Positions 24,615 through 49,861 of a DNA stretch of 64,000 nt are shown here, piece by piece (position 1 is the first letter of the stretch; every line of letters begins with the position of its first letter). Source of the DNA: Myxococcota bacterium. Lineage in GTDB: Bacteria > Myxococcota_C > UBA6777. The DNA lies in contig CAUJFU010000170.1 of the NCBI GenBank assembly GCA_963169055.1, positions 202-64,201 on the forward strand, read 5' to 3'. The notes under the pieces were generated by a model. That model was not told where the DNA came from and ran no database searches. It saw only the letters and a list, made by a program, of their open reading frames with translations. The position numbers were made by a program, and so were the translations under genes.

Positions 24615-24621
24615 GGACGTT

Positions 24622-26596: not shown

Positions 26597-26609
26597 AGAG
26601 GGCGAGATC

Positions 26610-29826: not shown

Positions 29827-29872
29827 ACAAGGCGACCTCTTGCCCAAGATCGCCCACCGAAAGGAGCCGAAT

Positions 29873-33060: not shown

Positions 33061-35232
33061 TCAGCCCGCCACTTTGAAAATGAAGGGGTAGTTGACGTCG
33101 ACAACACCACCACCTTGGGGAACGGGAAACTTCCAGCGGATGATACGGCGCGTGATGCAGTTTTCCACGGCATCGTTGTTCATGGTGGTCGATTTGACGT
33201 TGGCCGTTTCGACAGCGCCTGTTCCTCCGATGCGCCATGCGATCACGACCTTCCCGCCGAGTTTGGGGTTTTTCGTGAGTTCTTTTTCGTAGCAATAACG
33301 GATCTGCGCCCAGTGCATCTGGATAACGCGAGCGATCTGCTCTTTGGTCAGAGCGCCTTTGAGGATCAAGCGGCCCGGTTGGATCTGTGTGATGGTTTTG
33401 CCGCGCCCTTGCCCGCGAAGGTTCATTCCGCCGCGACCGTACACGCGCTTGCGGCCACCGTATCCCCAGCTACCGCCGCCATAACCACCGCCGCCGCCAC
33501 CGCCACCTGCACCAAAGCCACGGCCTGCGCCGCCCATCCCAAAGGATGCACCACCCGCAGAGCCAAGCAGCTTGCCAAGAAACTGTTGATCTTGAGCTTT
33601 CCCAAACAGATCGCCACCGGGACCCATATCGCCCATCCCGCTAGAGAGAAGGCCCAACAGACCCGACTTCTTCACCCGCTGCATGTCTCGTTGTTTTGGA
33701 TCCGCAGGGGCATCTTCTTTCGGGGCTTCTTTGGTCTCGTCCGTCTTCTTGTCTTCTTTGATATCTTCGTCTTTTTTCTCTTCTTTTTTCAGCTCAAACT
33801 TCTTTTCTTGCTTCTTTTTGATCTCGGGTGGTGGAACCACGATCATCTTGGCAAAGCGGCCTTTGAGGACGGTTTCACCGAGCGCCATCGGTCCAAGCGG
33901 AACGAATTGAAACATCAAGATCATCGCTGAGTGAACGATCGCAGAAAAAGCAATCACGCGCCAAAACAGATAGTCGCGGTTGCGGTATGCGTCGCTGTTG
34001 TAAGCCTTGGTGGGGTAAGTGTAAGAGAATTCGATGTTGAGGCTTTGGCCTTCAAGAGCGAAAACCTCGCCCGGAGCCACCGCATACACTTGTCCGTCGA
34101 GTCCATGGACACTTTTGCTGCTAAACTGGCCTTTGAGCGCGTCTGCGGAAACCACCGTCCCATCGGCTTTTGTCAAAACTGGATGGAAGGCGTTGGTAAA
34201 GAACACCCCAAAGCTCCCTTGGAAGGGGATAACGAGGGGATAGTTTTGATCGGGGAACTTTTCATCGGCGAACGAAAAGTCGTTGAGAGGGTGGGTTCCG
34301 ACGGTCACGATGCGGGGGCGATCGAAGTGGCCGACCTCGACGGGGGTTCCGTCCAAAAGAAAGCGCACTTGGAAAAGGCGTTCGCCTTTGCTTTGATCTT
34401 CTTGAACGAGATCTCGGCGGATACTTGGGGGAAGTTGATCGTCTGGAATCGGCGTGGTGTCGATCAGGATCGGGGCTGCAGGTTCTGCGATCAGCGGAGC
34501 GCCATAGTCACTCGCAGGAGGAGCCGCTGCTGCCGATGGGATGCGCATCTCGTCGCGGACAAAATTGGCCATGATCACGCTGCTTGGGGCGGGAGGTAGT
34601 GGTTCGTCTGTGACGGGGAAATCGGGTTCTTGGTCGAGTTCGGCTTCGCCGCCAAAGTCCCCGTCGTTGTCAAAGGGAGAAGATTTGATTCCTGCGAAGG
34701 GATCGGCTTTTTTGTCGAATGCGAAGTCTTCTTCTTCCATCACAGGCGGAAGCAGCAAATCGTCATCTTCGCGCTTGCTTTTGGCCGAAACAGCCTTGCC
34801 AAAGTCAGGCAACGGGCGCTTGACGGTCGGGCCTTCAGCTTCGCCGGGCGCACCGAATACATTGAGGATATCATCGTCGGCATCTGCGATGTTTCCGAAC
34901 ATGGGAGCCGCAACTTCGCCGGGAGGGTTTCCAAACACGCGGATGTACGAGCTTCCGATCTGAACGAGATCGCCGTCTTCGATCTGGGCCTCACCATCGA
35001 TCTTTCTGCCGTTGTGGAGGGTTCCTTCGCTGCTCCATCCAAGATCGCTCAAAAGGATCTCGCCATGTTCGTTGACTTTGAGCATGGCATGGATGCGGGA
35101 GACTTGCGGATCTTCCATGCGCAAGTGCGCTGCGGGGCCGCTCCCGATGATGATGTTTTCTTGGGAATATTTGTTGGTGTCCACCACACTATCCCCATCC
35201 AAGATCTGGATATAAACCGTTTTCTTTTCCAT
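33061..35232 (-). CDS. FHA-domain / single-TM / AgmX-PglI C-terminal-domain protein (GltG/NfsG-like)
   Basis: N-terminal FHA (IIIGSGPAAHLRMEDPQVSRIHAMLKVNEHGEILLSDLGWSSEGTLHNGRKI...GDLVQIG). TM WRVIAFSAIVHSAMILMFQFV, a K/E-rich segment and a Gly-rich segment. The C-terminus IRYCYEKELTKNPKLGGKVVIAWRIGGTGAVETANVKSTTMNNDAVENCITRRIIRWKFPVPQGGGVVDVNYPFIFK fits the TonB_C-like AgmX/PglI C-terminal pattern as I remember it. Confidence 0.85.
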   Translation of the reverse strand: MEKKTVYIQILDGDSVVDTNKYSQENIIIGSGPAAHLRMEDPQVSRIHAMLKVNEHGEILLSDLGWSSEGTLHNGRKIDGEAQIEDGDLVQIGSSYIRVFGNPPGEVAAPMFGNIADADDDILNVFGAPGEAEGPTVKRPLPDFGKAVSAKSKREDDDLLLPPVMEEEDFAFDKKADPFAGIKSSPFDNDGDFGGEAELDQEPDFPVTDEPLPPAPSSVIMANFVRDEMRIPSAAAAPPASDYGAPLIAEPAAPILIDTTPIPDDQLPPSIRRDLVQEDQSKGERLFQVRFLLDGTPVEVGHFDRPRIVTVGTHPLNDFSFADEKFPDQNYPLVIPFQGSFGVFFTNAFHPVLTKADGTVVSADALKGQFSSKSVHGLDGQVYAVAPGEVFALEGQSLNIEFSYTYPTKAYNSDAYRNRDYLFWRVIAFSAIVHSAMILMFQFVPLGPMALGETVLKGRFAKMIVVPPPEIKKKQEKKFELKKEEKKDEDIKEDKKTDETKEAPKEDAPADPKQRDMQRVKKSGLLGLLSSGMGDMGPGGDLFGKAQDQQFLGKLLGSAGGASFGMGGAGRGFGAGGGGGGGGYGGGSWGYGGRKRVYGRGGMNLRGQGRGKTITQIQPGRLILKGALTKEQIARVIQMHWAQIRYCYEKELTKNPKLGGKVVIAWRIGGTGAVETANVKSTTMNNDAVENCITRRIIRWKFPVPQGGGVVDVNYPFIFKVAG

Positions 35233-35358: not shown

Positions 35359-35643
35359 TTAGAGCTTGAGAGCGTTTTGCATCAGTTCGGGATTAAAGTC
35401 TTTGCGTGGCTGGATCAAACTGTCGAACTTCACGCGGCTGCGTTGAACCATGTAGCTTCCTTCGGGCTTGATCAATTCACCTTCCACCGCGCTGCCATCG
35501 AAGTCGATCTTCGTGTTCTTTTTGTACATCACGCGATCTTCGCCTTTGATGATCTTGACACGGGTTTGGGCCATCGCTGAACCCGTTGCCATCGCGGACA
35601 TTGCAAAAAACACAGCCATTGCGGTCAACATGCTTTTTTTCAT
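35359..35643 (-). CDS. Small secreted protein (GltF/NfsF-like by size and position)
   Basis: ATG 35643 follows AAGGAG. MKKSMLTAMAVFFAMSAMATGSAMA/Q is a signal peptide, and the mature part is ~68 aa. It occupies the slot between the GltE-like and GltG-like genes. The assignment rests on synteny and size only. Confidence 0.55.
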   Translation of the reverse strand: MKKSMLTAMAVFFAMSAMATGSAMAQTRVKIIKGEDRVMYKKNTKIDFDGSAVEGELIKPEGSYMVQRSRVKFDSLIQPRKDFNPELMQNALKL

Positions 35644-36072: not shown

Positions 36073-37377
36073 TTAAGAGCGAGGGGCAGGGGCAGGAGCG
36101 GTAGGTGCGAGAGTCGTAGGCGCGGGGGTCGTAGGCGCGGGAGTCGTAGGTGCGGGAGTCGTAGGCGCGGGAGTCGTAGGCGCGGGAGTCGTAGGCGCGG
36201 GAGTCGTAGGTGCGGGTTTGGGGGTGGCTTTTTTGGGTTCTTTTTTGGGTTCGGTGCCGATCTTCGAGAGACGGTCTTTGGCTTGTACGATAAACTTGCG
36301 CGCATCTTCGAAGCTTTGGAGCTTTTTGGCGTCAGGATGAGCAAGGAACTTATCGAACAATTTTTCTGAGCTTTTTTGGGTTTCTGTATTCTTGCTGTTG
36401 AAGAGGATGACACCGTGTTGAAAGACGGCTTCGGGATCGTCTGGGCGAAGGGTGAGGATGCGATCATACACTTCTTTGGCTTCGTTCATGCGTTCCATGC
36501 CCATCAAAGCGACGCCGTAGTTGCGGTTGGCGTAGAGATTGTTGGGCTGTTGTTTCAGAACTTTGCTGAAGTGATCGATGGCTGTTTTCCAAGCGCCGTT
36601 TTGGATAGCGATGGTTCCGAGGTTCATGTGCGCTTGGGTGTTCATCGAATCGTGTTTAAGGGCTTCGTGGAACTGCGCTGCTGCACGGGTGAGGTCTTGT
36701 TTCTTCATGTAGACCATCCCGAGGTTGTTGTAAAAGCCGGGGTCTTTTTTGTCGACTTGTTGAAGGGCGATGGTCGCGACAAGTTCGGCTTGGTTGTAGC
36801 GCTCCCATTCGTAGTAAAGCAGAATTAGGTTGCGATAGGCTTGAACATTTTTGTCATCGCGAGAGAGAACAAGTTGGGCTAACTTTTCAGCCTGATCGTA
36901 TTTTTTGGCTTTTCGATACAACATCGCGAGGTTATTTTTGAGTTCAAGATTGTCGGGGTTGTTCTTACTGAAATCTTCAAAGATGGTGAGCGCTTTGTCG
37001 ATCTTGTTTGCGCGGATATAGGCTTGTGCGAGTTCTCCGCGAACTTCTTGGTTGCCGGGGTTTGCGGTGGCGTATTTCTCGTAGTGACCGAGGGCTTCGT
37101 CATGGCGCTCTTGTTTTTCGTAGAGCTTGCCAAGAAACAGAGAGGCTTTGGTCAGGTTGGGGTCTTTGTCGAGGGCTTTTTTGCAAAGTTCCGTTGCCGC
37201 AGTGACGGAAGCAGCGGAATCATCGCCCATTTTGGCTTTGCACTCGATCAGATATTCTTGTGCGCTTTTTTCTTGGACGACCGTCTTGATCGGGTCTTTT
37301 TTGACCTGCGTACCCGTACAAGCGGGTCCGACGGCAAGGGCGGCAGCGCATCCGAGGAAAAGAACAAAGCGTTGCAT
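36073..37377 (-). CDS. TPR-repeat lipoprotein with C-terminal (APTTP)n tail (GltE/AglT/NfsE-like)
   Basis: MQRFVLFLGC lipobox. There are at least 7 canonical TPR units (e.g. ASLFLGKLYEKQERHDEALGHYEKYATANPGN, LKNNLAMLYRKAKKYDQAEKL, FYNNLGMVYMKKQDLTRAAAQFHEALKHD). The tail is K-rich and then APTTP x7. Confidence 0.8.
   Translation of the reverse strand: MQRFVLFLGCAAALAVGPACTGTQVKKDPIKTVVQEKSAQEYLIECKAKMGDDSAASVTAATELCKKALDKDPNLTKASLFLGKLYEKQERHDEALGHYEKYATANPGNQEVRGELAQAYIRANKIDKALTIFEDFSKNNPDNLELKNNLAMLYRKAKKYDQAEKLAQLVLSRDDKNVQAYRNLILLYYEWERYNQAELVATIALQQVDKKDPGFYNNLGMVYMKKQDLTRAAAQFHEALKHDSMNTQAHMNLGTIAIQNGAWKTAIDHFSKVLKQQPNNLYANRNYGVALMGMERMNEAKEVYDRILTLRPDDPEAVFQHGVILFNSKNTETQKSSEKLFDKFLAHPDAKKLQSFEDARKFIVQAKDRLSKIGTEPKKEPKKATPKPAPTTPAPTTPAPTTPAPTTPAPTTPAPTTPAPTTLAPTAPAPAPRS
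36103..36206 (-). repeat. Coding 15-bp tandem repeat x7 encoding (APTTP)7
   Basis: The plus-strand unit GTCGTAGG(C/T)GCGGGA repeats seven times. It translates on the minus strand to APTTPAPTTPAPTTP... at the C-terminus of the GltE-like lipoprotein. Confidence 0.9.
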
Positions 37378-37439: not shown

Positions 37440-40400
37440 TCACATCCCCAACACAGAGTCGCCGTCTTTTTTGGGCTGCTTTGATTCAGCGGCTTTGTCG
37501 GCTTGGGGGGTGGTGTCCTTGGCGTCTTTTCCGTCATTGGCCGGTGCTGCGGGTTTTTTGAGCATATCTGGTGTGGCTTTTTTCGAAAGATCGAGCTTGG
37601 AGAGGGTGGGTTCGATCAACCAGAAGCGGGTTTCGCGTTTGCTGAGGACGGTATAAGGGTTCACTTGGTTAAGTTTGCGTGTGATCTGGTTGCGGCGCAG
37701 TTCGACTTGGCGGGTCCATTCGTTGTAGAGGCCGAGTTCTGCGGCTCTCTTCAACACAGCGGAATACCCTTCGATGGCGGCGTCTTCGTAGCGCAGCGCA
37801 ACGTTTTCGATCTCGCTTTTGTACATCTGTTGGAGGTCGGGAGACAGGTCTTTGGGGACGGGGGCGGCGAAGATCTTTTCCACGAAGATGTGGGTGATCT
37901 CGTTCATGCGAAAGACCGCAGCAAGCGTCCATTTGGCGACGCCGTACCCTGCAACGGCGGAGTAGTCGCCTCGCAGAGCCGTTCCTGTTTTGATGATGTT
38001 TTTGAGAACACCTTTGTCTTTGCGGCTGTTCCCCGTGAATTGGATGGAGATATAAGAGCGTCGTCGTCGTTCTGCCAAGAAGAATCGGGCTTGAGCGAGG
38101 GATTCAAGGGCGGGGCCTTGGCCCATAATGCCCTTGATCTTGTGGCGAACCATCTGATCACCGAGCGCAACGACGATCATGTAGCGTTTTTCAGTTTCGG
38201 CGTTGTTTCCGAGTTTTTCGTTGGCGGCGGCGATGTGCGCGTGTGCGTACAACAAGAGATCGTTTTCCACCAAGTCGTTCTTCAGCGTGTTCAGGGTTTT
38301 CAAGACGGCGGGTGCCCCCTTGGCATCGAGATCCCGCTCAAAGCGCCGAACTGCGGTCGTTAAGAACGTGGAGACTTTGGCGTCTTGATACTTGGCGAGG
38401 TACACTTCAAAGGCTTCGATGGCGGCTTTCCATGCTTTGTTGTCTTCGTGGACGGTGGCGATGGCAAGGTAAAGTTTCGCGACTTCCTTGTCATCGGGGA
38501 AACGGCGGATGAAGTCCTTGTAAAGGATGATAGCGCGCTCGCTTTGTTGGAGGCCGCGACGATACAGGGCTGCGCTGTAGATAGCGCGATTTTGTTGGGC
38601 GAGCTTTTTCTTTTCGGTGTCTTCAGAGGATTCTTTGGCAACAACTTTGCCTTTTTTTCCTCTCTTTTTGGCGACTTTCTTTTTAACGACTTTTTTCTTT
38701 TTGCCTTTTTTCGGCGCGGCACCGTTTTCTTCGGCACTCTCAAGAATCTTCATCACGTCTTTGTCGCCGTACACATATTTTTCATACCACGACGCGGACT
38801 TGTCGTAGTTGGCGATCTGCTCGTAGTGACCGCCGAGTTCGAACTTGATCTGATCAACGAAATTGGTTTCGGGATAGCGGCTCACCATCAGTTCGCGGTA
38901 CTTGATGGCATCGAGGATGCGCTTGGAGTTGTTGAAGTTGTTTCCTGCGATGGCAAGGGCGTTTGGGGCGCGAGGGCTCATCACAAAGCTTTTCTTGGTG
39001 ACCCAAGGGCCTGTTTTCCCAAATTCATCTTCGTATTTGACGAGTTGTTCGGCGGTTTTGAGTGCGCCGAGCGTTTTTTGTTCAACGAAGATGCGCTGCC
39101 ATGCGGAGCGGATCACCATCTGGTACATCTCTTCTTTGAACTTGGCGTTTTTGGTGAGTTGTGGATCTTCGATGAAGATGCGTGCGTTTTGCTCCAATTG
39201 AGGCCAGTCTTGGAGGTCTTCGTAAGAATAGAGGATCATAAACGCCGCACGACGGCTGAGTTCGTGGGTGGGGAACTCTTTTGCCATCATGGAAAAGATG
39301 TTCATCGACTTACGGTAATGCTTGTAAGAATAGTAGATCGCGCCTGTCTTAAAGAAGCTTTGTAAGCGTTCTTCTTTGTCGGACTCTTTTTTGGGATCAA
39401 GGATGGTCAAATAACGCTCGTAGGCTTTCATTAAGCGTTGATCCCATTCTTTGATCGTGAGGCGAGTCCATGTGATCTTGCCGTCTTTGTCTTTGGTTAG
39501 ACCCTGAAGTTTTTTTCCGGCCCCTTTTAACTCGACGCTACCGGTACGTCCAGCAAGTGCTTCATAACAGAGGATCTCGGAGAAGGCCGCTTGTTTTTTA
39601 AACTGCCCTTGGATCTGGGTGCTGCGTTGGACCGTTTGGTCGTATTGGTAAGCAGCACGGGCGTAAACCTTGCGGGCATCTTCGGGAGGATTGTTCTTGC
39701 GGGTTTTGGGAGTGAGTTGTTGAGCTTTGCGGTAGAGCAGTTCAGCAAGGTAAAAGCGCAATTCATAAGCACTTTCCGAACTAGGATAATATTCTAGATA
39801 TTTTCCATAAAGTTGGATCGCAAAGTCGTAATAAAGTTCTTGGCGCTTGAGATTCTCTTTTTCTTTTTGGGCGTCTTGGTGGTAGCGCGTCGAGTATTCG
39901 AGCAGCGTTTGTTCTGCGGATTCGTTGGCTTCCTGCCAAACTTTCTTATCGCCGTTCCATCGTTTGTGCCAAGGGTTTTTATCATCAAAGTAAGCCATGA
40001 GGTTTTCAACTTCTTTGAAGATCTCTTGGGGTTTGGCGATTTTGGCGATGGAGCGGAGGACTTCGTTTTGGAAGAGAGGTGCTTCGGGGCCGAAGTTGTC
40101 GGGTTCGCCTTGGGGATTCATGGTCATCAAGAGCTTGTAGGTCTTGATGGAGAGGGGATAGTTGCCTTGGTTGTAGTAGCGACCCGCGAGGCGGCGTGTG
40201 GCTTTGTAGGCGTACACGGGCCCCATGATGGATTTGAAGTAATTGTAAGCGTCGTCCGAAACATCCAAACGTGCGAACACAAGGACAAGATCGCGCAAGG
40301 CTTCGTCGCGCAGGATCACTTTGCTTTCTTTGGTTTTGGCGTAGCGGATGGAGAGTTTGATCACGTGTTTGAATTGTTGGAGGGCTTTTTCGTACTCGCC

Positions 40401-41348
40401 GACGTTGAATTGACACCAGCCGATCATGTACATTGAACGAAGGTTGATGCCGCGCAAGTTGGCCTTGTCATCGAGAGAAAGATTGGGATCTTTGGCGCGT
40501 TCTGCGGTGATACGAAGGGCGGATTGGTAATTTTCGAGAGCGAGCTGGACTTTGTTTTTGGTGTTGTTGAAATAGTAGTCTGCAAGAGCCGTATAAGCAT
40601 CTGGAACATAACGACTATTTGGGTAATCTTTTAACAACCGAGTGAACATGGTGAGAGCTTCTTGCTTTTTGTCCATGTCCATGAAGTTGAAGCCGAGGTT
40701 GTAGACGACTTCGTCGGCGCGCTCGTATTTGGGGTAGAGTTGAAGCAGTTTTTTGTAGACGTTGACAGCGTTGGTGCGGTACACGTCGGCTTTGGAGAGT
40801 TCAGCTTTGGGAGCGGGAGGGCAGTTTTGGTTGTTGCGTTTGCGACAATCTTGGTCCCACTCTTCCATTTTTTTGTTGTGTTCTTCCATGGACAAGAATC
40901 GGAGATATTTGGATTCTTCCCAGTATTCTTCGGCCAATTGGTAGCGCAACTGTGCGTTGCGGGCGGGATCTTCTTCGTTGGGGATGAGGGTTTTGTAGGT
41001 GTTAATCTTTTGTTGGCGGATCTCGGCTTTGGCTTTGTCGGCAAAGACGCCAGCGGTGAGTCCTTTGATCTTTGCGGGGCGCTGGACTTGTTTTTTGGCT
41101 TCTTCTGCGCGGCGGCGCTCTTCTTCAAGTTCGCGTTGGGTTTTTTTGCGTTTGAGGTCGATCAGCAGCTTATCTTTTTGCTTGCGCTGAAGCTTGAGTT
41201 TTTGAAACGAGCCTTCCCGCTTGCCTTTTCGTTCAAAGTCTTTTTGGTCGTAGTTTTGCGCGGAAGCAAGGCCCAAAGAGAGTGCCCAGAGGGCGGCACA
41301 TCCAAGGCCGAGCAGCCACGCATACAACGAGTTATTTTGGCGGATCAT
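37440..41348 (-). CDS. Very large secreted TPR/coiled-coil protein (GltD/AgmU/NfsD-like)
   Basis: 1302 aa. Signal LYAWLLGLGCAALWALSLGLASA, a K/E/R coiled-coil segment, and TPR-like repeats throughout (e.g. ADEVVYNLGFNFMDMDKKQEALTMFTRLLKDYPNSRYVPDAYTALADYYF). An internal KKGKKKKVVKKKVAKKRGKKGK patch. The start overlaps the upstream stop (ATGA at 41345-41348). Confidence 0.85.
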   Translation of the reverse strand: MIRQNNSLYAWLLGLGCAALWALSLGLASAQNYDQKDFERKGKREGSFQKLKLQRKQKDKLLIDLKRKKTQRELEEERRRAEEAKKQVQRPAKIKGLTAGVFADKAKAEIRQQKINTYKTLIPNEEDPARNAQLRYQLAEEYWEESKYLRFLSMEEHNKKMEEWDQDCRKRNNQNCPPAPKAELSKADVYRTNAVNVYKKLLQLYPKYERADEVVYNLGFNFMDMDKKQEALTMFTRLLKDYPNSRYVPDAYTALADYYFNNTKNKVQLALENYQSALRITAERAKDPNLSLDDKANLRGINLRSMYMIGWCQFNVGEYEKALQQFKHVIKLSIRYAKTKESKVILRDEALRDLVLVFARLDVSDDAYNYFKSIMGPVYAYKATRRLAGRYYNQGNYPLSIKTYKLLMTMNPQGEPDNFGPEAPLFQNEVLRSIAKIAKPQEIFKEVENLMAYFDDKNPWHKRWNGDKKVWQEANESAEQTLLEYSTRYHQDAQKEKENLKRQELYYDFAIQLYGKYLEYYPSSESAYELRFYLAELLYRKAQQLTPKTRKNNPPEDARKVYARAAYQYDQTVQRSTQIQGQFKKQAAFSEILCYEALAGRTGSVELKGAGKKLQGLTKDKDGKITWTRLTIKEWDQRLMKAYERYLTILDPKKESDKEERLQSFFKTGAIYYSYKHYRKSMNIFSMMAKEFPTHELSRRAAFMILYSYEDLQDWPQLEQNARIFIEDPQLTKNAKFKEEMYQMVIRSAWQRIFVEQKTLGALKTAEQLVKYEDEFGKTGPWVTKKSFVMSPRAPNALAIAGNNFNNSKRILDAIKYRELMVSRYPETNFVDQIKFELGGHYEQIANYDKSASWYEKYVYGDKDVMKILESAEENGAAPKKGKKKKVVKKKVAKKRGKKGKVVAKESSEDTEKKKLAQQNRAIYSAALYRRGLQQSERAIILYKDFIRRFPDDKEVAKLYLAIATVHEDNKAWKAAIEAFEVYLAKYQDAKVSTFLTTAVRRFERDLDAKGAPAVLKTLNTLKNDLVENDLLLYAHAHIAAANEKLGNNAETEKRYMIVVALGDQMVRHKIKGIMGQGPALESLAQARFFLAERRRRSYISIQFTGNSRKDKGVLKNIIKTGTALRGDYSAVAGYGVAKWTLAAVFRMNEITHIFVEKIFAAPVPKDLSPDLQQMYKSEIENVALRYEDAAIEGYSAVLKRAAELGLYNEWTRQVELRRNQITRKLNQVNPYTVLSKRETRFWLIEPTLSKLDLSKKATPDMLKKPAAPANDGKDAKDTTPQADKAAESKQPKKDGDSVLGM

Positions 41349-43174
41349 CGCTTACATTCTCCCTGAATAAATTGACGGTAGTGGGCCACTTCATCGAGCC
41401 AGAACTCGCCTTGGTAGGGCCAAAAGATATGGCTTTGTTCTGTGATCAAGGTGTAGCGGTATTCGTCTTGTTCGATACCGCCGCCTTGTGCGTAGCGATC
41501 GAGTTCTTGCTTTTGTTTTTGCAAGGTTTCGAGCTTGATGACTTGGGCCTGATTGACTTGTTTGGTGACATCCTTGCGGATGGACTCGAGGGCTGCGTGG
41601 ATGCTGAGGCCCGCTCGACGTTTGAGGGCTTCGCGGGTTTTGAGGGCCGTTTCAAGCAAGGCACGTCCGAGGTTTGAGGTCTTCCATGCGGAGCCGCGAG
41701 TGCGGATGATCTCGATCTCAGCGTCGGTTTTGTCCATGAGGCTTTGGTAGTTGCGCAGCGATTTGTCTTGTTCAACAAGTGCAATGAGAGAGGGGAGAAG
41801 ATCCGTGGTTTTGCCTTCTTTGAGCAGCGTTTGTTGGCTTCGGAAGTACTCGTAGTATTGGGCGATCCAGTTCTCCTTGGTGCGTCGGGCAACCAATGCT
41901 TTGAGTTTGTCTTGGAGCGGTTTAAAGAACGCTTCAAAGCGTGCGATGGATTGTTTGGTTTCTTCGTATTTGCAGTTTTGGAAGTAGATCAGCGATTGGA
42001 GGATCTGGAGTTCGGGGAAGAAGCTGATCTGATAAAAGGCCGATTGGAGGCCCAAGATGCGGCCCAGCGAGAAGTGGTAGTACTTGAGCATGTAAAACAC
42101 CCAAGACGTTTCAAAGAGGACTTCTCCTTTGGTCAGGCCGCGTTGCTTGGGGACTTTGCGGTATTCCCGAAGGGAGGCGACAAGGTGTTCTTGGCCTTTG
42201 GGGTTGTCGAGGTTAAAAACACCGAGTGCGTAATAAGAGCGGGCGATACCGAGTTGTGCGAATTCTTTGATTTGAAGGAGTTCTTGGCGTAGTGCTTTAT
42301 CTTCGGGCTTGTCGCCTGTGGGCAGGGGGAGATCGATGATGCGCTGGAAATATTCGATGGCGCCGTCGTTGTATCCGACCTGAGCGTTGCGTGTGCCCAT
42401 GAGATAAAGGGCTTTTGCAAAGTAGTTGAAGGGAGCGCGTTTGCGGACTTGGCTTAGCAGCACGATGGGCATGTAGACGTATTCGGTGTTGGTGCGGCCA
42501 AAGACGAAGTAGTAGCGGCCCATGAGGTAGGAGAAGGAATCCTTAAAATCATCAATGCGTTTGTGCCAGCGTTGGGTGAGGTCGGGATTGCGTTTGACGC
42601 TCGCAGGAACGGGGAAAAGATAGGGTATGGGGTCGGTCAATGCGGGGATTTCGATTTTTTTGCTTGTGCGTGTCAATCGAAGAGCGCGGATGTTTGGGGG
42701 GATCCGTCGAAGGATCTGGATCAGCCCGAGGCGTCCGAGGATCAAGGTTTCATCGCCTGTCGCGGAGGCTGTTTGGATCATGCGATCGAGTGCAAGCAGG
42801 AAGTTGCCGTCAGGGCGTCGTTTTTTGGGGTCAGCGATATCGAGGGTTTGGGTCTCGCGCAAGACGTCATTGAAATACCCTGAGGAGACGATACCGAGCT
42901 GCATCCGAAAGAGAGCGCGTGCGAGCAACAGACGGGCAGCGCGTTGAAATTTGGGGAGGGCGGTACCGTTTTCGATGATATCGAAGAAGTCGACGGAAGC
43001 GCCCTCGAAGTCGTTGCTTTTGTACTTGACGCGGGCGCGGCTAAAGAGGCTTCGGATCTCGCGTTCGGTCATCATGGCTTGTGCAGCCACAGGTTCAACA
43101 TACAAACAAGAGGTGAGAAGGACGGCAGCAAGCGCCAGCATCCACCTCGACATACGTCTGGTTTTTTGCAACAT
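41345..43174 (-). CDS. Secreted TPR-like protein (GltC/NfsC-like)
   Basis: 609 aa. AGGAG RBS, signal MSRWMLALAAVLLTSCLYVEPVAAQA, then helical repeats. It lies directly between the barrel gene and the GltD-like gene. The assignment rests mainly on position and architecture. Confidence 0.7.
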   Translation of the reverse strand: MLQKTRRMSRWMLALAAVLLTSCLYVEPVAAQAMMTEREIRSLFSRARVKYKSNDFEGASVDFFDIIENGTALPKFQRAARLLLARALFRMQLGIVSSGYFNDVLRETQTLDIADPKKRRPDGNFLLALDRMIQTASATGDETLILGRLGLIQILRRIPPNIRALRLTRTSKKIEIPALTDPIPYLFPVPASVKRNPDLTQRWHKRIDDFKDSFSYLMGRYYFVFGRTNTEYVYMPIVLLSQVRKRAPFNYFAKALYLMGTRNAQVGYNDGAIEYFQRIIDLPLPTGDKPEDKALRQELLQIKEFAQLGIARSYYALGVFNLDNPKGQEHLVASLREYRKVPKQRGLTKGEVLFETSWVFYMLKYYHFSLGRILGLQSAFYQISFFPELQILQSLIYFQNCKYEETKQSIARFEAFFKPLQDKLKALVARRTKENWIAQYYEYFRSQQTLLKEGKTTDLLPSLIALVEQDKSLRNYQSLMDKTDAEIEIIRTRGSAWKTSNLGRALLETALKTREALKRRAGLSIHAALESIRKDVTKQVNQAQVIKLETLQKQKQELDRYAQGGGIEQDEYRYTLITEQSHIFWPYQGEFWLDEVAHYRQFIQGECKR

Positions 43175-43193: not shown

Positions 43194-43907
43194 TTAAAAG
43201 AAGAAGCTAAAGCCGAGATTGAGTGCCATATCGACACGAAACAAGTCTTGTTTTCGGCTTTCAAAGTGATCCGGCATAAACAGCACACGAAACTCCCATC
43301 GGAAGGCGAGAAAGCGCAGCAAAAAGTAGCGTTGTCCGAGGCCGACGCCGCCAAAGGGGGCAAAGCCGGGGCTGCCTTTGGCCCCTTTTTCGGTCAACAC
43401 GTTTTCGGCTGCGGGTAGATCGCTAGGCGGGGGGAAGGTCAAAAAGACGCCACCAAGGACGGTAAAGAAGATATCGTAATGGATGATCGCTTGGCTAAAG
43501 AGGTTGAATTTCCCGTAAAACGGGGCGAATCGAAACTCGGCACCGACGGTTGAGAAGAGGAAGGGGCGGCGAACATCGGGTTTGACGCGGAAGGTTCCGG
43601 CGTCGTTTTGGAGTTGGTTCGTGAGTCCGGTGGGGACGTCAAAGCTGCCTGTGGCGAGGAGGCCAAGCGCAAACCATTCGTTGATATGATACATGTAGCC
43701 GAGGTTGACGTTATAGACTTGATAGAAAGGATCGTTGGTGACGAGACCAAGGCTGAGGTTGAGTTCTTGTTTTTGGGTCTTGGTGTAGAGGCGCTTTTTG
43801 AGGGCGTCGTCACCGGGGCGAAAGCGATCAGATGGACTGTCTGCGTGAGATGTGCGGGGGAGGCAGAGGAAGCCGAGAACAACAAGCACAAGCGTGAACT
43901 TTTTCAT
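43194..43907 (-). CDS. Outer-membrane beta-barrel protein (GltA/GltB/NfsA/NfsB-like)
   Basis: Signal MKKFTLVLVVLGFLCLPRTSHA. The pattern of alternating hydrophobic residues is typical of amphipathic beta strands (LNLSLGLVT, YNVNLGYMYHI, FALGLLATGSF, FRFAPFYGKFNLF). It ends LNLGFSFFF, a C-terminal aromatic OMP signature. Confidence 0.7.
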   Translation of the reverse strand: MKKFTLVLVVLGFLCLPRTSHADSPSDRFRPGDDALKKRLYTKTQKQELNLSLGLVTNDPFYQVYNVNLGYMYHINEWFALGLLATGSFDVPTGLTNQLQNDAGTFRVKPDVRRPFLFSTVGAEFRFAPFYGKFNLFSQAIIHYDIFFTVLGGVFLTFPPPSDLPAAENVLTEKGAKGSPGFAPFGGVGLGQRYFLLRFLAFRWEFRVLFMPDHFESRKQDLFRVDMALNLGFSFFF

Positions 43908-44209: not shown

Positions 44210-44968
44210 TCATGGGGTGTTTGGGTTAAAGGTGAGGGCCAAACGGGCAGCCATCTTGTCGGCGGAACCTTGTTCGATGGTATAGCTGATTTCTTCGGAA
44301 GAAGCGATCTGGTTTTGCCCTGCGTCAAGGGCGCGGGCAAAGACGTTACGGTTGTTTGCGAAAGGGACGTTGGTCAAGATCGCGAACTTGGGCTTAGGCT
44401 GTCCATCGATCAGTCGGACGAAGAGATTTTCTTCTTTGGCGTCGTTGAGGGCTTTGAGTACAAATTGCAAGCGTTTGGCGGCTTCGGGGATATCGTTTGT
44501 GAAGCGGATGATCAGGGTTCCGGTGGTTACGCCTTGTCGGCGACCGAGAGAGAGCGTGACAGCGCTTTGGATGTCGTCGCCTGATTTTTCGACTCGAAAG
44601 GCTGGGGTGCTGCCGTTTGACACGGAGCGACCGCTGGAATCGTACGTTACGATCGTGAGTTTGCGTTCGCCGCCGTAGGGGATTTGTTTGAGGGGGATGG
44701 GTGGGATCTGACACTTCCCTGTTTGGGAATTCCAAAACAGGTCGGTGGGTTGAAAGCCTTCGGTGAACTTGGCGTTAACGATCTCTTCTTGTTGTTCGGT
44801 GAGTTTTTCGACAGTAAATTCCATCTGATAGACGCCAACACATGGAAGGTCGGCTTTTTCTTCGACGCGGATCACAAACCGTTCGATATAAGAGCAACTG
44901 CCGAGTTGGGTGAGGGCCAAAACAAACAACAAAACAGAAGACAAAGAGGGAGCAGCGAAGCGTTTCAT
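44210..44968 (-). CDS. Lipoprotein of unknown function (occupies the GltK-like position)
   Basis: ATG 44968 gives MKRFAAPSLSSVLLFVLALTQLGSC with a good lipobox (LGSC). The mature part is ~230 aa and beta-rich. No recognisable motif. Confidence 0.6.
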   Translation of the reverse strand: MKRFAAPSLSSVLLFVLALTQLGSCSYIERFVIRVEEKADLPCVGVYQMEFTVEKLTEQQEEIVNAKFTEGFQPTDLFWNSQTGKCQIPPIPLKQIPYGGERKLTIVTYDSSGRSVSNGSTPAFRVEKSGDDIQSAVTLSLGRRQGVTTGTLIIRFTNDIPEAAKRLQFVLKALNDAKEENLFVRLIDGQPKPKFAILTNVPFANNRNVFARALDAGQNQIASSEEISYTIEQGSADKMAARLALTFNPNTP

Positions 44969-45088: not shown

Positions 45089-46651
45089 TTATTGGGTGCC
45101 GGAAGCGGTGGTGGTCACAATAAAAGTCGCATTCGGTGGTGCGCTGTTTTGCGCGATAAGGACGCCAGCGGTGACGGCTCCTGCGCCGACGACGGCGACG
45201 ACGATGATGGTCCAAAACCACCATTTTTGTGCGATGGATTCGCCCTTGGGTTCGGGCTTTTGGGGTTTTTCGGTAATACGTTTTTCGGGTTCGCTGCGTG
45301 GTTCGATGGCAGCGACGCGGCGTTCGGGTTCAGGATCGGGTTCGGTGCGTCGTTCGGGTTCGGTGCGCCGTTCGGGTTCGGTGTGTCGTTCGGGTTCACG
45401 TCGAGCGATAGGTTCGGCGCGTCGTTCGGGTTCGGGTTCGCGTCGGATAACGGGGGGTGGGTCAGGGCGGCGGACGGGTTCAGCAACGGGAGAGAGTTGC
45501 TGCTCGAGTTGTTGGGCGTATGCGACGATGGCGCTGCGATGCTCATCCCGAGACAGGCCGATGGTGAGTTTGTGGTAAGTGATATTTTTGGCGTCTTTTT
45601 GGTATTTGGCGATGTAGAGCAGGATGACGCTACCGCCATCCGTTTTGGAAAAACGTCTGGGTTCAAGCATATAGAGGTGATCTGCGCCAAGTTTGTCGCG
45701 GATCGACTCAAGGCGATCAAGGACGAGGGGATCGACGGCAGCGGCTTTGTCGAAGATGGGGATACCGTCGAGGGAAAGGGCTTTGGGATCGCGTTCGAGG
45801 GAGACGTTGTTTTTGAGGCTGGTGCGGCTGCCGAGCTTTTTTTTGTCAAAGTTGGCGATACTTTTCCACATCTTGTAGCCGTTGTATTCGATGCGAAAGA
45901 GGTGACGGCCAAGAGGGATCTCGCGGATGGTGACGGGAGTTTTCCCGACAAGGCGTTGATTGTAGTACACTTTTGCGTTGTTGGGGGTGGAGTCAAGAGA
46001 AAGTGAGTAGTTGGCGCTGCGTTTGACCCAGTCACGGATTGTGTTGAAATATTTTACGAATTGCTCGGGATATTTGCCTTCGTCTGGCTGATATTCGGGG
46101 TTGAATTGAGCTGCTCGGATCACATATTCCCGTGTTTTTGGGCCATTGCGCATCTGGAGGTAGGCAAGGCCGTGGAGCAAGTAAAGTTCGGTGAAGAGGT
46201 TGGGATCGGTGATCCAATCTTCGATGTGGGGGGCAAGTTTGTTGGCTTTTTCGAGGGCTTTGAGGGCAAAGCCGGCGTAGCGGGGTTGATTGAAGGAGCA
46301 GAGCTTTTGGCCTTTTTCGAGATAACGGCGGAAGTATGTAATGCGGATCTCTGTTTTTCGGTCGATGGTTTGGACATTATTGAGGCGGTTGGTGAGATCA
46401 GCTTCTTCCATGACGTCGAGACGGGGGCGTTGTCGGAGCGCCCAACGATAGAGGCGTTGGATCCATTCGGCCTCGGTGCTGTCGAGGTTTGTGTTGGATT
46501 TGTAGGGAATGATCGCGATCTTGGGCTTGGTGTTTGCGTGGGAGTTGGAGATCCAAGTCAAAGGGAGAAAAAAGAGCAGGGGTAAAACTGCGCAGCGAAA
46601 GAAGGTGCGTTGTGGTGGTGGGGGAAGTGTGGAGGCAAACCGTGGGACCAT
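45089..46651 (-). CDS. Secreted KIAIIPY / TPR-like / PEGA protein with (EPERR)n linker and C-terminal TM anchor
   Basis: ATG 46651 follows AGGAG, so I prefer it to the TTG at 46708. Signal CAVLPLLFFLPLTWISNSHA, then KPKIAIIPYKSN. PEGA: SLDSTPNNAKVYYNQRLVGKTPVTIREIPLGRHLFRIEYNGY. Repeats EPERRAEPIARREPERHTEPERRTEPERRTEP. TM WWFWTIIVVAVVGAGAVTAGVLIA. Confidence 0.75.
   Translation of the reverse strand: MVPRFASTLPPPPQRTFFRCAVLPLLFFLPLTWISNSHANTKPKIAIIPYKSNTNLDSTEAEWIQRLYRWALRQRPRLDVMEEADLTNRLNNVQTIDRKTEIRITYFRRYLEKGQKLCSFNQPRYAGFALKALEKANKLAPHIEDWITDPNLFTELYLLHGLAYLQMRNGPKTREYVIRAAQFNPEYQPDEGKYPEQFVKYFNTIRDWVKRSANYSLSLDSTPNNAKVYYNQRLVGKTPVTIREIPLGRHLFRIEYNGYKMWKSIANFDKKKLGSRTSLKNNVSLERDPKALSLDGIPIFDKAAAVDPLVLDRLESIRDKLGADHLYMLEPRRFSKTDGGSVILLYIAKYQKDAKNITYHKLTIGLSRDEHRSAIVAYAQQLEQQLSPVAEPVRRPDPPPVIRREPEPERRAEPIARREPERHTEPERRTEPERRTEPDPEPERRVAAIEPRSEPEKRITEKPQKPEPKGESIAQKWWFWTIIVVAVVGAGAVTAGVLIAQNSAPPNATFIVTTTASGTQ
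45318..45445 (-). repeat. Coding 18-bp-type tandem repeat encoding (EPERR/TEPERR)n
   Basis: The plus-strand unit CGTTCGGGTTCGGTGCG is iterated. It encodes REPEPERRAEPIARREPERHTEPERRTEPERRTEPDPEPERR. Confidence 0.8.
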
Positions 46652-46697
46652 GCTTTTTTCTCCTGCCGCAAACGAGAGGGTGTACTCAAGAGGCGGA

Positions 46698-47840
46698 CTA
46701 TCGGGCAATAAAACGCTCTAACTTTTTAATGTAGGAAAAGATGGCGCGTTGTCCTTCCGCGTTGCTGTCGCCGACGCGGATGCTTTTGTATTCGATACGT
46801 TTTGCGCCTTTGCGGTAGGTAGCGATTTGAAGGACGCTGAGAGTATCGCCTTTGAGGGTGATATTTTGGGGTTGGGCGATGAAGAGGTATTCGGCGTTGA
46901 GGCGGTTGCTGATGGATTCGAGGCGATCGAGGACGATGGGGTCTTCGCCCGTACCTTTTTCAAACATGGGGATGCCGTCAAGGTTGAGGGCTTGTGGATC
47001 TCGGCTCAAGGGGACGGTGGTGCGGAGGCTGCGTCGGTCTCGGAGTTTGGCTTTATCGAAATTCGCGGCGGTGTTCCAGCGGTTGTAGCCGTCCAGCTCG
47101 ATGCGCAAAAGATGGCGTCCAAGAGGGATGTTGGGGATGGTGGCAGGAGTTTTTCCGACAAATCGATGGTTGTAGTACACATTTCCTCCGGGCGGATTGG
47201 AGGAGAGAGTGAGGGAGTATTGTGCGCTTTCTTTGACTTCTTTGCTAATGCCACCGAAGAAGTCGACGAATCCAGCGGGAAAAGCATCACCGAGGCGTTG
47301 GAAGTCAGGATTGAATTGGACTGTTTTCATGACGTAGGTGCGGGCTTGATCTTGGTCTTTGCTGATGAAGTGGGCGAGCGCGGTGTAGAGATAGAATTCC
47401 GTCATGAGTTGCGGATCGGTGAGTTCGTTTTGGAGGTCGGGGATCATCTCTTCGGCCTTGTTGAGGGCTTTGAGTGCGAATTTGCCGAAGCGGGGCTGAC
47501 CGATCGCGCACAATTTTTTGCCTTTGTCAAGGTACTCTTGGAATCGCTTGATTTGTTCGCGGGTTTCGTTGCTGACGGGTTTCACGTTATTGAGCGAATC
47601 AAGGACTTGCTTTTTGCCGAGCAGATCAAGGCGCGAGCGGCCTTCCATGGCGCGTTGGAAGTAGAGTTTGAGGATGCCAACGCGAGCAGAGTCGAGATTG
47701 GAAGGGGCGGAATAGGGGAGGATCGCGATGCGTTTTTTGGCGGCGGAGGCGGGGGCTTGTAGTGCGAGCAAGAGGGCAAGAGAGGCCAAAAGCCCGACTG
47801 GTATGTTGAGGGTTTGTTTCCATCCACCCGAAAGCTTCAT
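46698..47840 (-). CDS. Secreted KIAILPY / TPR-like / PEGA protein (tandem paralog of 45089-46651, no TM tail)
   Basis: ATG follows GAGGAG. Signal VGLLASLALLLALQAPASA, then KKRIAILPYSAP. PEGA: TLSSNPPGGNVYYNHRFVGKTPATIPNIPLGRHLLRIELDGY. It is collinear with the downstream paralog along its whole length. Confidence 0.75.
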   Translation of the reverse strand: MKLSGGWKQTLNIPVGLLASLALLLALQAPASAAKKRIAILPYSAPSNLDSARVGILKLYFQRAMEGRSRLDLLGKKQVLDSLNNVKPVSNETREQIKRFQEYLDKGKKLCAIGQPRFGKFALKALNKAEEMIPDLQNELTDPQLMTEFYLYTALAHFISKDQDQARTYVMKTVQFNPDFQRLGDAFPAGFVDFFGGISKEVKESAQYSLTLSSNPPGGNVYYNHRFVGKTPATIPNIPLGRHLLRIELDGYNRWNTAANFDKAKLRDRRSLRTTVPLSRDPQALNLDGIPMFEKGTGEDPIVLDRLESISNRLNAEYLFIAQPQNITLKGDTLSVLQIATYRKGAKRIEYKSIRVGDSNAEGQRAIFSYIKKLERFIAR

Positions 47841-48061
47841 GCTTGTTCTCCTCGTGGTTGCCTTGGTCTTGTGGTCGGATCCGCAGGGGCCGTGTGTTGA
47901 TCGGTGCTGTGTTTGGCAGCTTTTGCGCTAGAAATCCAGCGTTCGATCATCTGCGCTGGTCTGTTGTATCGAAATCACCTGCGAAGATCAAGCGGATGGT
48001 GAGAGCAAACAAGCGAGGAGAGCGAAACCGAGAGCGCAAGAGGGGGAGCGGATGGAGGGTT

Positions 48062-49861
48062 TCAGGGGTATTGAAAGCGGTATGTATTGGTTTTTCCTGC
48101 CTCTACAGAGATTTGGTATTGTTTCGTTGTGGTGTCGGCTTGCTTTTTGGGGACTTGGTATTGGAGTTGGATGGTGTACTCTCCGATAGGTAGTTCTTTT
48201 TCAAAGGGAATTTGAGTGTGATCGATGAGTTTTCCTTGAAAAAAGATATAAGCCCAAGGGACAGAGCGGATGATCACGCGGCCTTTTTGTGGAGGGGAGG
48301 CGATCGGACGGAGGGCGGGTTGTTGTGTGGAGGAGGCCGATGGAGGGATACGAGCGGCGACTTGGGTGGGTGAGGAGGGCAAGAACCATTGGGCGAGAAC
48401 GAAGAGCAACAAGAGTCCCGTTGCGAAGGTGCCGAGGCCGATCCAAAGAGGAGCATGTTGTTTTTGAGAAATCGCGGTTCCAGCGAACAGTTCTTCGTCT
48501 TCTTGCATCTCAAGCAGAGCGGGAGAAGCTGTCCATGTGCTTGCGCTAGGAGTTTCTTGCGTGTGTTTTTGCGGTGGTTCGGTCTTTTGCGAACGCATCG
48601 GCAAAGGATCTTTGGGTGGAGGTGCATCCTCGGAAACGGCCTGAACGTCTGGTAAAGTCGGTTCATCATGTTCAAGGCGTGCATGGATTTGCAGTTGCGG
48701 AGGAGATGCTCTGAATGGGTGTGGATGGTTGTGTGGTTGAGAAAAAGGTGTTGCTCCGGCGAATACTTCGACGGGTTGTGAGCGCGAGCCGTCAAGAGCG
48801 AGAGGCGGTTTGACGGTGGGTGGTGCAGGTGTATTGAGCGGGCGTCCTGCGGCGATCTGCTTGGCGTGTACTTCTCGGGCGATCTTGGTTTCCTCCATAA
48901 TGGCGGTACTATCGCGCTCGAATACGTCTTCAAACAATTTGCGGATAAAGGCCGAGAGATGCGCACGCGAAGGAAACAGGTGAGAGCGGCTGAGGAAGCG
49001 CAGAAGATCGAGGCGCATCTCTGCGACGCTGGCGTAGCGATCTTCGGGATAGCGCGTCAAAGCTTTCATCAGGATGTGATCGAGATCAGGCGGAAGGCTG
49101 GGGTTGATATGGCGCAAGGGTGTAAACAGAGCTTCACGGACTTTTTCGAGGATGACGTAGTCGTTGGGTCCGTCGAACATCTTTTGGCAGGTCAAGAGTT
49201 CCCATGCCACCACACCAAGCGAAAAGATATCGCTACGGTGATCCATGCGATCACCGCGCACCTGTTCGGGCGACATATAGGCGAACTTGCCTTTCAAGAC
49301 ACCGCCTGTGGTGTCGTCGCGTCCGAGGACTTGAACGCGTGCGATGCCAAAATCCGTGATTTTGACCTCGCCTTCGTAGGAGATCAAGATATTTTGCGGC
49401 GTGATATCGCGATGAACCAAGTTGAGGAAGTTGCCCATATCATCGTGTTTTCGGTGAGCATAATCGAGTCCGTTGCAGATCTCGATCAGAACCCAAACAG
49501 CGAGGCCAAGCGGGATATGTTGTTGATATTCGCGACACCTGTAGAGCAACGCAGCCAGATCGCAACCGCGCACATACTCCATCGCGATGAAGTAGAGTTC
49601 GTCTTGCAGGCCGAAATCGTAGATGGGGACTGTGTTGACGTGATTCAGGGTGGCGGCGAGCTTCGCTTCGTTGATAAACATCTGAACAAAAGAGGGATTT
49701 TCCGTCAAATGTGGATAAAGCCGCTTGATCGCGATGAGCTTTTCAAAGCCTTCTGCGCCAAAAGATTTGGCTCGAAAGACTTCGGCCATCCCTCCCACAG
49801 CGACCTTGTTGAGAAGGATGTAACGTCCGTATACCAAGGGATCGAGTTGAGCTGCTTGCAT
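48062..49861 (-). CDS. Ser/Thr protein kinase with TM segment and C-terminal PEGA-like domain
   Basis: VGGMAEVFRAKS, IAIKRL, HRDITPQNIL, DFGIA and YMSPEQ are all intact. TM LWIGLGTFATGLLLLFVLAQWF. The C-terminal GRVIIRSVPWAYIFFQGKLIDHTQIPFEKELPIGEYTIQLQY is PEGA-like. Confidence 0.9.
   Translation of the reverse strand: MQAAQLDPLVYGRYILLNKVAVGGMAEVFRAKSFGAEGFEKLIAIKRLYPHLTENPSFVQMFINEAKLAATLNHVNTVPIYDFGLQDELYFIAMEYVRGCDLAALLYRCREYQQHIPLGLAVWVLIEICNGLDYAHRKHDDMGNFLNLVHRDITPQNILISYEGEVKITDFGIARVQVLGRDDTTGGVLKGKFAYMSPEQVRGDRMDHRSDIFSLGVVAWELLTCQKMFDGPNDYVILEKVREALFTPLRHINPSLPPDLDHILMKALTRYPEDRYASVAEMRLDLLRFLSRSHLFPSRAHLSAFIRKLFEDVFERDSTAIMEETKIAREVHAKQIAAGRPLNTPAPPTVKPPLALDGSRSQPVEVFAGATPFSQPHNHPHPFRASPPQLQIHARLEHDEPTLPDVQAVSEDAPPPKDPLPMRSQKTEPPQKHTQETPSASTWTASPALLEMQEDEELFAGTAISQKQHAPLWIGLGTFATGLLLLFVLAQWFLPSSPTQVAARIPPSASSTQQPALRPIASPPQKGRVIIRSVPWAYIFFQGKLIDHTQIPFEKELPIGEYTIQLQYQVPKKQADTTTKQYQISVEAGKTNTYRFQYP

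Follow-up and report, generated by a model that had tools for sequence, protein, structure and literature searches.

Does a pair of secreted PEGA-domain proteins encoded at the head of a Glt/Nfs-like gene array belong to the machine that the array specifies, or are the two proteins only its neighbours? The question arises from contig CAUJFU010000170.1 of a Myxococcota bacterium (GTDB lineage UBA6777; assembly GCA_963169055.1), of which we analyzed a stretch of 64,000 nucleotides, here called the window. Coordinates are positions within this window, and (+) and (-) denote its strands; L001–L019 are labels for related loci and P-numbers for the family proteins that were compared with the window. 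Glt/Nfs machines are a model for bacterial focal-adhesion gliding and spore-coat assembly. Directly upstream of the array, two adjacent genes encode a short and a long paralog, and a preliminary description, made by reading the sequence, had proposed both as uncharacterized accessory subunits. We find that the long, membrane-anchored form occupies one fixed slot at the head of the array in six lineages, that the short form is, by its place in the tree, a recent duplicate of it, and that the family as a whole is, judged by its gene neighborhoods, not tied to Glt genes. The proposal that the anchored protein is a clade-specific accessory or scaffold subunit of the Glt/Nfs-like machine appears to us evenly balanced between right and wrong. 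All carriers are metagenome-assembled, and the evidence is genomic and drawn from one clade.

The two genes are genuine and paralogous. They had been described as encoding collinear secreted proteins side by side, and this was borne out: both minus-strand open reading frames (ORFs) lie exactly where they had been placed, and their products are 45% identical across 344 residues and collinear from end to end (E 4e-107). By sequence and hydropathy scan, each N-terminus resembles a signal peptide with a basic n-region, a hydrophobic core of 11–16 residues and an AxA-type site, and cleavage in the pair is predicted between ASA and AKK and between SHA and NTK. The PEGA domain (Pfam PF08308) that had been noted in both scores 50.6 bits in the short protein (residues 208–264, ~47049–47219) and 44.4 bits in the long protein (~45836–46009), far above the gathering score of 20.8. 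The long ORF is open upstream to a TTG at 46708, which would yield 539 residues, but its start is most likely the ATG at 46651, because a GGAG ribosome-binding site of its own stands in the 46-nt gap between the genes; this gap bears GGAGAAAAAAGC after CGA TAG and before ATG GTC CCA. That the ORFs are not genuine, or that one copy is a decaying pseudogene, is an idea to which we give practically no credence. Its one point of support is the presence of overlapping alternative-frame ORFs in a mechanical listing, and it is refuted by full-length orthologs of the short paralog (94, 90 and 72% identity), by the ratio of nonsynonymous to synonymous substitution rates (dN/dS) and by a confident AlphaFold2 fold. 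Measured against the 90%-identical relative L003, dN/dS is 0.078 for the short gene and 0.068 for the long gene, in the same range as for the neighboring GltC-like, kinase and lipoprotein genes. Purifying selection acts on both copies.

Downstream of the pair, a single co-directional cluster encodes an outer-membrane beta-barrel and GltC-, GltD-, GltE- and GltG-like proteins, the last with a TonB-like tail (Table 1), which makes it a Glt/Nfs-like array. The label Glt-like, as first applied to these genes, is sound but distant: since the equivalog models match below their cut-offs, the GltC-, GltE- and GltG-like proteins are, on these scores, distant relatives and not orthologs of the Myxococcus proteins. 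The GltG-like tail exceeds its own model (NF033768, 116 bits against a cut-off of 40). The lipoprotein between the long paralog and the barrel is kept at 33–43% identity in all long-type loci. The protein in the GltD position is 44–52% identical to its counterparts in distant lineages and 82% identical to that of the close relative L001, and the small protein in the GltF position is 51–58% identical to the products of ~90-residue genes in L008 and L010. At its end, the GltE-like protein carries a low-complexity (APTTP)n repeat (36073–36200, (-)), PAPTTPAPTTPAPTTP. The PEGA proteins themselves stand apart from known components, as the preliminary description had supposed. No NCBIfam Glt model (gliding_*, OMP_myx_plus) matches the short protein, the long protein or a third, more distant protein of the window (see below) at E ≤ 0.01. 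The Glt literature that we retrieved lists at least 17 proteins, including GltA–K, AglRQS and CglB; the Glt/Nfs papers found do not mention a PEGA protein, and the few papers found on the PEGA domain do not concern Glt.

The case for membership is carried by the position of the anchored gene. In every anchored member with readable context the order is the same: queA and an rpoH-like sigma-factor gene (divergent; the latter at 50108–51022 in the window), a Ser/Thr kinase gene, the anchored PEGA gene, the lipoprotein gene, the barrel gene, and then the GltC-, GltD-, GltE-, (GltF-) and GltG-like genes. The anchored form is therefore directly upstream of, and co-directional with, the Glt-like core, the position first reported for the pair, in six of six readable lineages: that of the window (L001, L003, L004), L005/L014 (metagenome-assembled genome (MAG) NP119), L008, L010, L011 and L019. 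The L019 contig stops within rpoH, and queA is not visible there; the contigs that carry two more distant GltC-like proteins, P0161 and P0162, are too short to reach the upstream genes. A locus search with an eight-sequence alignment returned four loci, two from genomes and two from metagenomes; both sets consisted of one close relative of the window and one NP119-type locus. Across lineages, identity to the window amounts to 52–59% for QueA (L019 excluded), 71–84% for RpoH and 32–38% for the anchored protein, which is, with the lipoprotein, the fastest-evolving member of the block. In L019 (4328–6012), the interval from the anchored PEGA gene to the barrel gene contains two genes of ~270 residues and not one; the window lipoprotein is matched by the first only, and the second could have arisen by duplication or be an additional component.

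A promoter-like element marks the beginning of this series of genes. In the region that separates the kinase gene from the PEGA gene, one block, GCTTGATCTTCGCAGGTGATTTCGATACAACA, is invariant in four relatives despite diverged flanks. Generalized to CTTG[AT][CT][CT]-N17-TA.AA., that is (C)TTGAYC-N17-TAnAAn, the pattern is close to the sigma-70 consensus. It occurs once each in the window, L001–L004, L005/L014, L008 and L019, always on the coding strand and 134–200 nt upstream of the PEGA gene; in the lineage of the window, L005, L008 and L019, four of six, it lies between kinase and PEGA gene. The pattern is also found upstream of dispersed short genes in L006 (1008–1037, at 140 nt) and L012 (7851–7880, at 120 nt), neither of which took part in deriving it. 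No further matches were present on either strand of 334 kb, where shuffled sequences predict about one; an exact match is absent from L007, L009, L010 and L011. A consensus scan for terminators and promoters found nothing useful, and its -10 rule excludes TACAAC. The placement of the pattern supports a transcription unit that begins at the PEGA gene, a separate unit for the kinase, and retention of the promoter type by some dispersed paralogs. From this arrangement we infer an operon in which the long gene would be the first behind the conserved promoter, followed by an outer-membrane module and then by a periplasmic and inner-membrane module (GltD-, GltE-, GltF- and GltG-like). The long gene and the lipoprotein gene are ~120 bp apart, and the 302 bp ahead of the barrel gene leave room for an internal promoter. 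The CTTGA of the -35 region is, in addition, similar to sigma-32-type promoters, and the conserved divergent neighbor encodes a sigma factor of the RpoH family; we record this as a lead only.

Table 1. Positions, strands and characteristics of the features discussed, in the order in which they occur in the minus-strand direction, followed by the plus-strand relative.
Feature	Position	Strand	Characteristics
Ser/Thr kinase	48062..49861	(-)	Pkinase 118 bits; one transmembrane helix, at residues 470–495; ~75-residue C-terminal ectodomain
Promoter-like element CTTGATC-N17-TACAAC	47963..47992	(-)	~120 nt upstream of the ATG of the short gene; invariant block in four relatives
Short paralog	46698..47840	(-)	380 residues, ATG start; signal peptide, predicted beta-alpha-beta-alpha module, five helices, PEGA, alpha-beta3-alpha; anchor-free
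Long paralog	45089..46651	(-)	520 residues from ATG 46651; the same four modules, then spacer, anchor and conserved tail
Pro/Glu/Arg-rich spacer of long paralog	45242..45496	(-)	Residues 386–470; 85 residues, 66% P/E/R
C-terminal anchor and tail of long paralog	45092..45223	(-)	WWFWT-(small-residue hydrophobic helix), then PPP[SN]AT[FL]I[IV]TT
Lipoprotein	44210..44968	(-)	~252 residues, LGSC lipobox; slot of GltK in M. xanthus; no family match
GltA/GltB-type outer-membrane beta-barrel	43194..43907	(-)	TIGR04565 OMP_myx_plus, 79.5 bits against a cut-off of 60
GltC-like periplasmic protein	41345..43174	(-)	NF033756, E 5e-59, 200.6 bits against an equivalog cut-off of 450
Tetratricopeptide repeat (TPR) protein in GltD position	37440..41348	(-)	1302 residues; placed by size, position and TPR content; no GltD model match
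GltE-like TPR lipoprotein	36073..37377	(-)	NF033758, E 1.2e-36, 126.5 bits against a cut-off of 225
Small secreted protein in GltF position	35359..35643	(-)	~94 residues; placed by position only
GltG-like protein	33061..35232	(-)	N-terminal FHA, transmembrane segment, AgmX/PglI (TonB-C-like) tail; NF033760, E 7e-84, 282.6 bits against 650
Distant relative of the pair	30841..32409	(+)	Signal peptide, N-terminal strand, helical region, PEGA-like domain; C-terminal half differs; convergent with the array

The family to which the pair belongs is small, previously undescribed and, in its long form, apparently ancestral. It was defined by exhaustive HMMER searching of 1.84 billion cluster representatives, in which ~16 clusters matched over their full length and PEGA-only matches ran into the thousands (5258); word-indexed homology searches gained little, with just 4–5 proteins each. 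All members come from MAGs or metagenomes, where they are annotated only as 'PEGA domain-containing protein', 'hypothetical protein' or 'TPR repeat protein'. They exist in an anchored form of 470–540 residues with a Pro/Arg-rich spacer and in an unanchored form of 367–415 residues, and 19 of 19 members reach or exceed the PEGA gathering score. As in other PEGA proteins, the domain has a transthyretin-like (carboxypeptidase-regulatory) fold; most PEGA proteins are multi-repeat surface proteins, whereas here it is present in a single copy that takes up ~60 of 380 residues. Two copies occur in the lineage of the window only; the remaining five carry just the anchored gene. In a neighbor-joining tree the short and long clades of the window are sisters, whereas the other unanchored proteins branch elsewhere, beside different anchored proteins. 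Because of this sister relationship and the restriction of two copies to one lineage, the short gene is, on the sequence evidence, a recent lineage-specific tandem duplicate of the long gene that lacks its spacer and anchor. The branching of the remaining unanchored proteins indicates that the anchor was lost more than once within the family. The short gene, proposed at first as a component alongside the long gene, is consequently not an independent conserved one; its duplication, followed by loss of spacer and anchor, would have yielded a soluble periplasmic version that may be co-transcribed with the long gene.

The features that set the long form apart suggest how it might act. An (EPERR)n spacer and a transmembrane anchor had been reported in one of the paralogs, and both were recovered: a spacer of the length and composition given in Table 1 is followed by a predicted membrane segment. 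Part of the spacer is encoded by an 18-bp tandem DNA repeat (45336–45435). A spacer is present in every long-type member, although its length and sequence vary across the family alignment. The hydrophobic segment behind it, WWFWTIIVVAVVGAGAVTAGVLIAQN, reads WWFWT...LIAQN, with a mean hydropathy of 2.6 over residues 477–502 and an 18-residue tail behind. The WWFW and AT[FL]I[IV] motifs are kept in nine of nine long-type sequences, the former as the start of a WWFW(T/A)-small-residue helix and the latter in a tail, PPP[SN]AT[FL]I[IV], that includes an invariant Thr. After cleavage of the signal peptide, the head of the anchored protein would reside in the periplasm, held to the inner membrane by the C-terminal helix, and a Pro/Glu/Arg spacer of 70–100 residues would let it reach the outer-membrane module (lipoprotein, barrel and GltC-like protein) or the cell wall. 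The protein may thereby serve as a scaffold or strut that joins the inner membrane to the outer-membrane platform or the cell wall. By analogy, it works most like a periplasmic tether of the TonB/TolA type with inverted topology. Like TonB, TolA, GltG and GltJ, the long form combines one membrane helix, a Pro-rich charged spacer and a globular head that is predicted to be periplasmic, and it shares its array with a GltG-like protein of the TonB type; the difference is that its anchor is C-terminal, behind a cleavable signal peptide, and not N-terminal, and that it has no cytoplasmic domain. Tested for membership of the TonB family, the long form has the Pro-rich spacer only, with no TonB_C or AgmX/PglI match and with its anchor at the C-terminus.

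The head shared by both forms was modeled with AlphaFold2 (AF2). With five sequences the model of the short protein was poor (predicted local distance difference test, pLDDT, 66), and the model from a 19-sequence alignment was used instead (mean pLDDT 88.9; predicted template-modeling score, pTM, 0.74). It divides the protein into four modules. First: an N-terminal module is predicted with a beta-strand (36–40), a helix (51–66), a second strand (71–73) and a second helix (76–83). The KIAI(I/L)PY motif, by which the proteins had been recognized, corresponds in this region to a basic-then-hydrophobic beta-strand that is kept throughout the family, although its 'PY' is not conserved. Second: residues 91–205 form five consecutive long helices. 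The description of this region as TPR-like is based on these helices and on sub-threshold matches to TPR_2, TPR_1 and TPR_8 in 5, 2 and 2 of the 19 members (best E ~5e-4); at the Pfam threshold, neither window protein has a TPR match. Third: residues 208–277 fold into the beta-sandwich of PEGA. Fourth: the C-terminal domain has a helix (301–314), three strands (318–355) and a final helix (360–379), and its motif DGIP.F.K...DP.VLDRLESI, singled out from the beginning, is the most conserved stretch of the entire family alignment. A structural check of the terminal domains had been suggested; it produced a confident model, but only the PEGA part acquired a fold match. In a Foldseek search of the PDB, significant matches were confined to PEGA, with the transthyretin-like domains of carboxypeptidases D, N and M (E 5e-4 to 1e-3), and those to PelC, PqiC, CinA and dsRBD/protein-Y folds were not significant (E 0.05–0.3, TM 0.1–0.3). 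A phmmer search of the PDB with the whole protein found nothing, and a profile of the concatenated N- and C-terminal segments gave only noise against the PDB and Pfam. The likeness to PelC (5t0z, E 0.06) and PqiC (8q2c, E 0.12) is weak. A 'basic-IAxLP' strand at the N-terminus is typical of the small alpha/beta lipoprotein domains of the PelC/PqiC/LpoB/TolB-N type, which is a lead only; the family proteins have no sequence signal for these domains and no lipobox, and we claim neither membership nor that the strands of the N- and C-terminal modules make up a single domain of the PelC/TolB-N kind.

Several observations weigh against a role of the anchored protein in the machine. First, the synteny also takes in queA, rpoH and the gene for a PBP1C-type penicillin-binding protein, so that all carriers form one clade with conserved gene order, in which linkage alone is no proof of function; the co-location could be inherited and not functional. 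Second, the unanchored proteins P0024 (L007), P0033 (L009) and P0019 (L012) are encoded among unrelated genes with no Glt-like or kinase neighbor, and the head therefore works in other contexts too. Around them are, among others, genes for an amino-acid permease and an HMG-CoA synthase, a porin-like gene together with those for RNase III and RecA, and genes of the MOSC and TPR kinds. Comparison of these neighbors with the window and among the three loci gave no matches and no alternative conserved neighborhood. Third, family scans that covered most long ORFs of the window found no MotA/TolQ/ExbB or ExbD/TolR match, that is, no motor of the AglRQS type, and a motor for the Glt-like array may be encoded elsewhere in the genome. 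Fourth, the N- and C-terminal modules are without sequence relatives or confident fold relatives in Pfam, NCBIfam and the PDB, and for this reason no biochemical activity can be assigned. Finally, the anchor has basic residues ahead of it, on the N-terminal side, but none behind it, an arrangement uncommon in stop-transfer anchors that makes the topology of the anchored protein uncertain.

These points bear on the alternative that the anchored protein is a general periplasmic envelope protein, for example a binder of cell wall or polysaccharide, that owes its Glt-adjacent position to a chance gene order passed down within one clade. The unrelated genes within the block, the scattering of the unanchored members and the occurrence of PEGA in thousands of otherwise unrelated surface proteins all agree with it. 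The co-directional, close spacing behind a promoter of its own has nevertheless been kept while the protein diverged to the identity given above, and in none of the six lineages does the anchored form occur outside this slot. We regard the alternative as possible, if somewhat unlikely. The proposal of an accessory subunit thus holds up for the anchored form and not for the family. The preliminary description had named homologs scattered in genomes without linkage to Glt/Nfs-like genes as evidence that would speak against it: the anchored homologs are Glt-linked, and the unanchored copies in L007, L009 and L012 are of that scattered kind, so that this evidence speaks in part against the proposal. 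As L012 and the anchored L019 share a sample and have similar GC content, an anchored copy in the array and a soluble copy dispersed elsewhere may coexist in one organism. In L009 (~9760–9960), directly upstream of P0033, there are four tandem copies of a ~47-nt unit with the palindrome GAGACGCCAAAATTGGGCGTCTC.

The Ser/Thr kinase gene, which is the direct upstream neighbor of the PEGA gene in every long-type locus, introduces a further possibility. The ectodomains of its orthologs in L005 (7660–9621), L008 (7675–9753) and L010 (7643–9799) match PEGA at 24–27 bits, above the gathering score; that of the window kinase is too diverged to match PEGA itself and is assigned through these orthologs. 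By these matches, the conserved block pairs a kinase with a PEGA ectodomain and a tethered protein with a PEGA head. The PEGA proteins might then be partners of the kinase and not of the Glt-like machine, the anchored one acting as co-sensor or substrate in envelope sensing, and the invariant Thr in its predicted cytoplasmic tail would suit such a role. The gene arrangement points the other way: the conserved promoter-like element stands between kinase and PEGA gene, the two are 200–300 bp apart in the window and in the other lineages except L011 (38 bp), the downstream genes are close, and the dispersed unanchored paralogs also have no kinase neighbor. We consider a partnership with the kinase in place of the machine unlikely.

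Kinase and machine could also be joined in one scheme, in which a phospho-dependent assembly switch for a trans-envelope machine of the Glt/Nfs type would consist of the kinase with its PEGA ectodomain, the anchored PEGA protein and the FHA domain found in the GltG-like protein. The kinase would phosphorylate the invariant Thr of the tail (PPP[SN]A-T-[FL]-I-[IV]) and so create a docking site for the GltG FHA domain, and the periplasmic PEGA head and the PEGA ectodomain of the kinase would read the same cell-wall or surface cue. The spacing of the tail, pT-x-x-I/V, is like that of classical FHA ligands. The GltG-like FHA domain reads IIGSGPAAHLR..VSRIHA in the window (33061–35232, (-)), in L008 (21189–21497) and in L010 (21337–21500), with Ser at the place where the phosphate-binding Arg of the canonical Gly-Arg is expected, and the domain may not bind phosphothreonine classically. 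The scheme is weakened by this replacement in three lineages and by a tail that begins only ~8 residues from the membrane, and we regard it as a long shot. If true, it would define a previously unrecognized class of structural and regulatory subunits of Glt-like machines.

Beyond the point at which the array converges with plus-strand genes lies the protein that had been introduced as a third member of the same plan. The shared part of that plan was upheld: aligned with the family profile, it gives an hhalign probability of 93% (E 2.6e-7) over 216 columns that span the N-terminal strand, the helical region and PEGA, although BLASTP recovers only the 99 residues near PEGA (E 2e-6) and its PEGA score of 15.8 bits is below the cut-off. 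The C-terminal half is different; the protein has no anchor and possesses another, beta-rich C-terminal region of ~110 residues, while by eye an alpha-beta3-alpha segment may follow PEGA. These comparisons make it a distant relative that shares part of the plan, and not a paralog of equal rank. Directly upstream of it, a secreted protein of 319 residues (29870–30829, (+)) ends in NWPWLTVVGVVVVAAAVAIPVGLVVAQNQ, and its C-terminus, W-x-W / small-residue helix / AQN, is an anchor much like that of the long PEGA protein; the remainder is unrelated. This plus-strand pair, anchored and then soluble, parallels the minus-strand pair, in which the soluble short protein precedes the anchored long protein. 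It is preceded by a TPR protein (27686–28612, (+)) and a TolB-like PD40 beta-propeller protein (28741–29826, (+)), and further upstream by an oligopeptide ABC transporter (20235–27689); the genes at 27686–30829 (+) may form a second envelope complex. Elsewhere in the window, the scanned ORFs include Ser/Thr kinases at 264–2183 and 2340–3707 in addition to that at 48062–49861, two histidine kinases and a sigma-54 activator (8362–9744). Between queA and the gene for the PBP1C-type penicillin-binding protein (54022–56772), a 539-residue protein (52238–53857, (-)) gives three strong matches (E 8e-41) to a cysteine-rich family of plants, 'Stigma-specific STIG1-like'.

For the anchored PEGA protein as a candidate subunit, the closest precedent lies in the history of the Glt system. 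Luciano et al. (2011) described lineage-specific 'Group A' additions to a conserved core (PMC3169522); in M. xanthus, the accessory Group A components are GltK, GltF, GltH, GltI and GltJ (PMC3169522; Commun Biol 2025, PMC11761067). The anchored protein agrees with this pattern and would be an addition made in another clade of Myxococcota, an uncultured one: it is likewise encoded by a lineage-restricted gene added to a GltC/D/E/G core, beside the genes of the outer-membrane module. It differs in having no sequence relationship to the Group A components and in that its carriers are uncultured and have only distant Glt homologs. The route by which a conserved TolQR/TonB-like core became different machines through lineage-specific add-on modules is still a question in the field (PMC3169522). 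The locus analyzed here offers a compact, single-cluster version of Glt (K-like, A/B, C, D, E, F-like and G) in uncultured Myxococcota, with two extra conserved neighbors not described for Myxococcus or Bdellovibrio: a kinase with a PEGA ectodomain and a tethered protein with a PEGA head. Should the latter prove to be a true subunit, the TonB-like GltG would be joined by another periplasm-spanning strut of a second, inverted kind, and PEGA, a widespread domain without an assigned function, would gain a concrete context.

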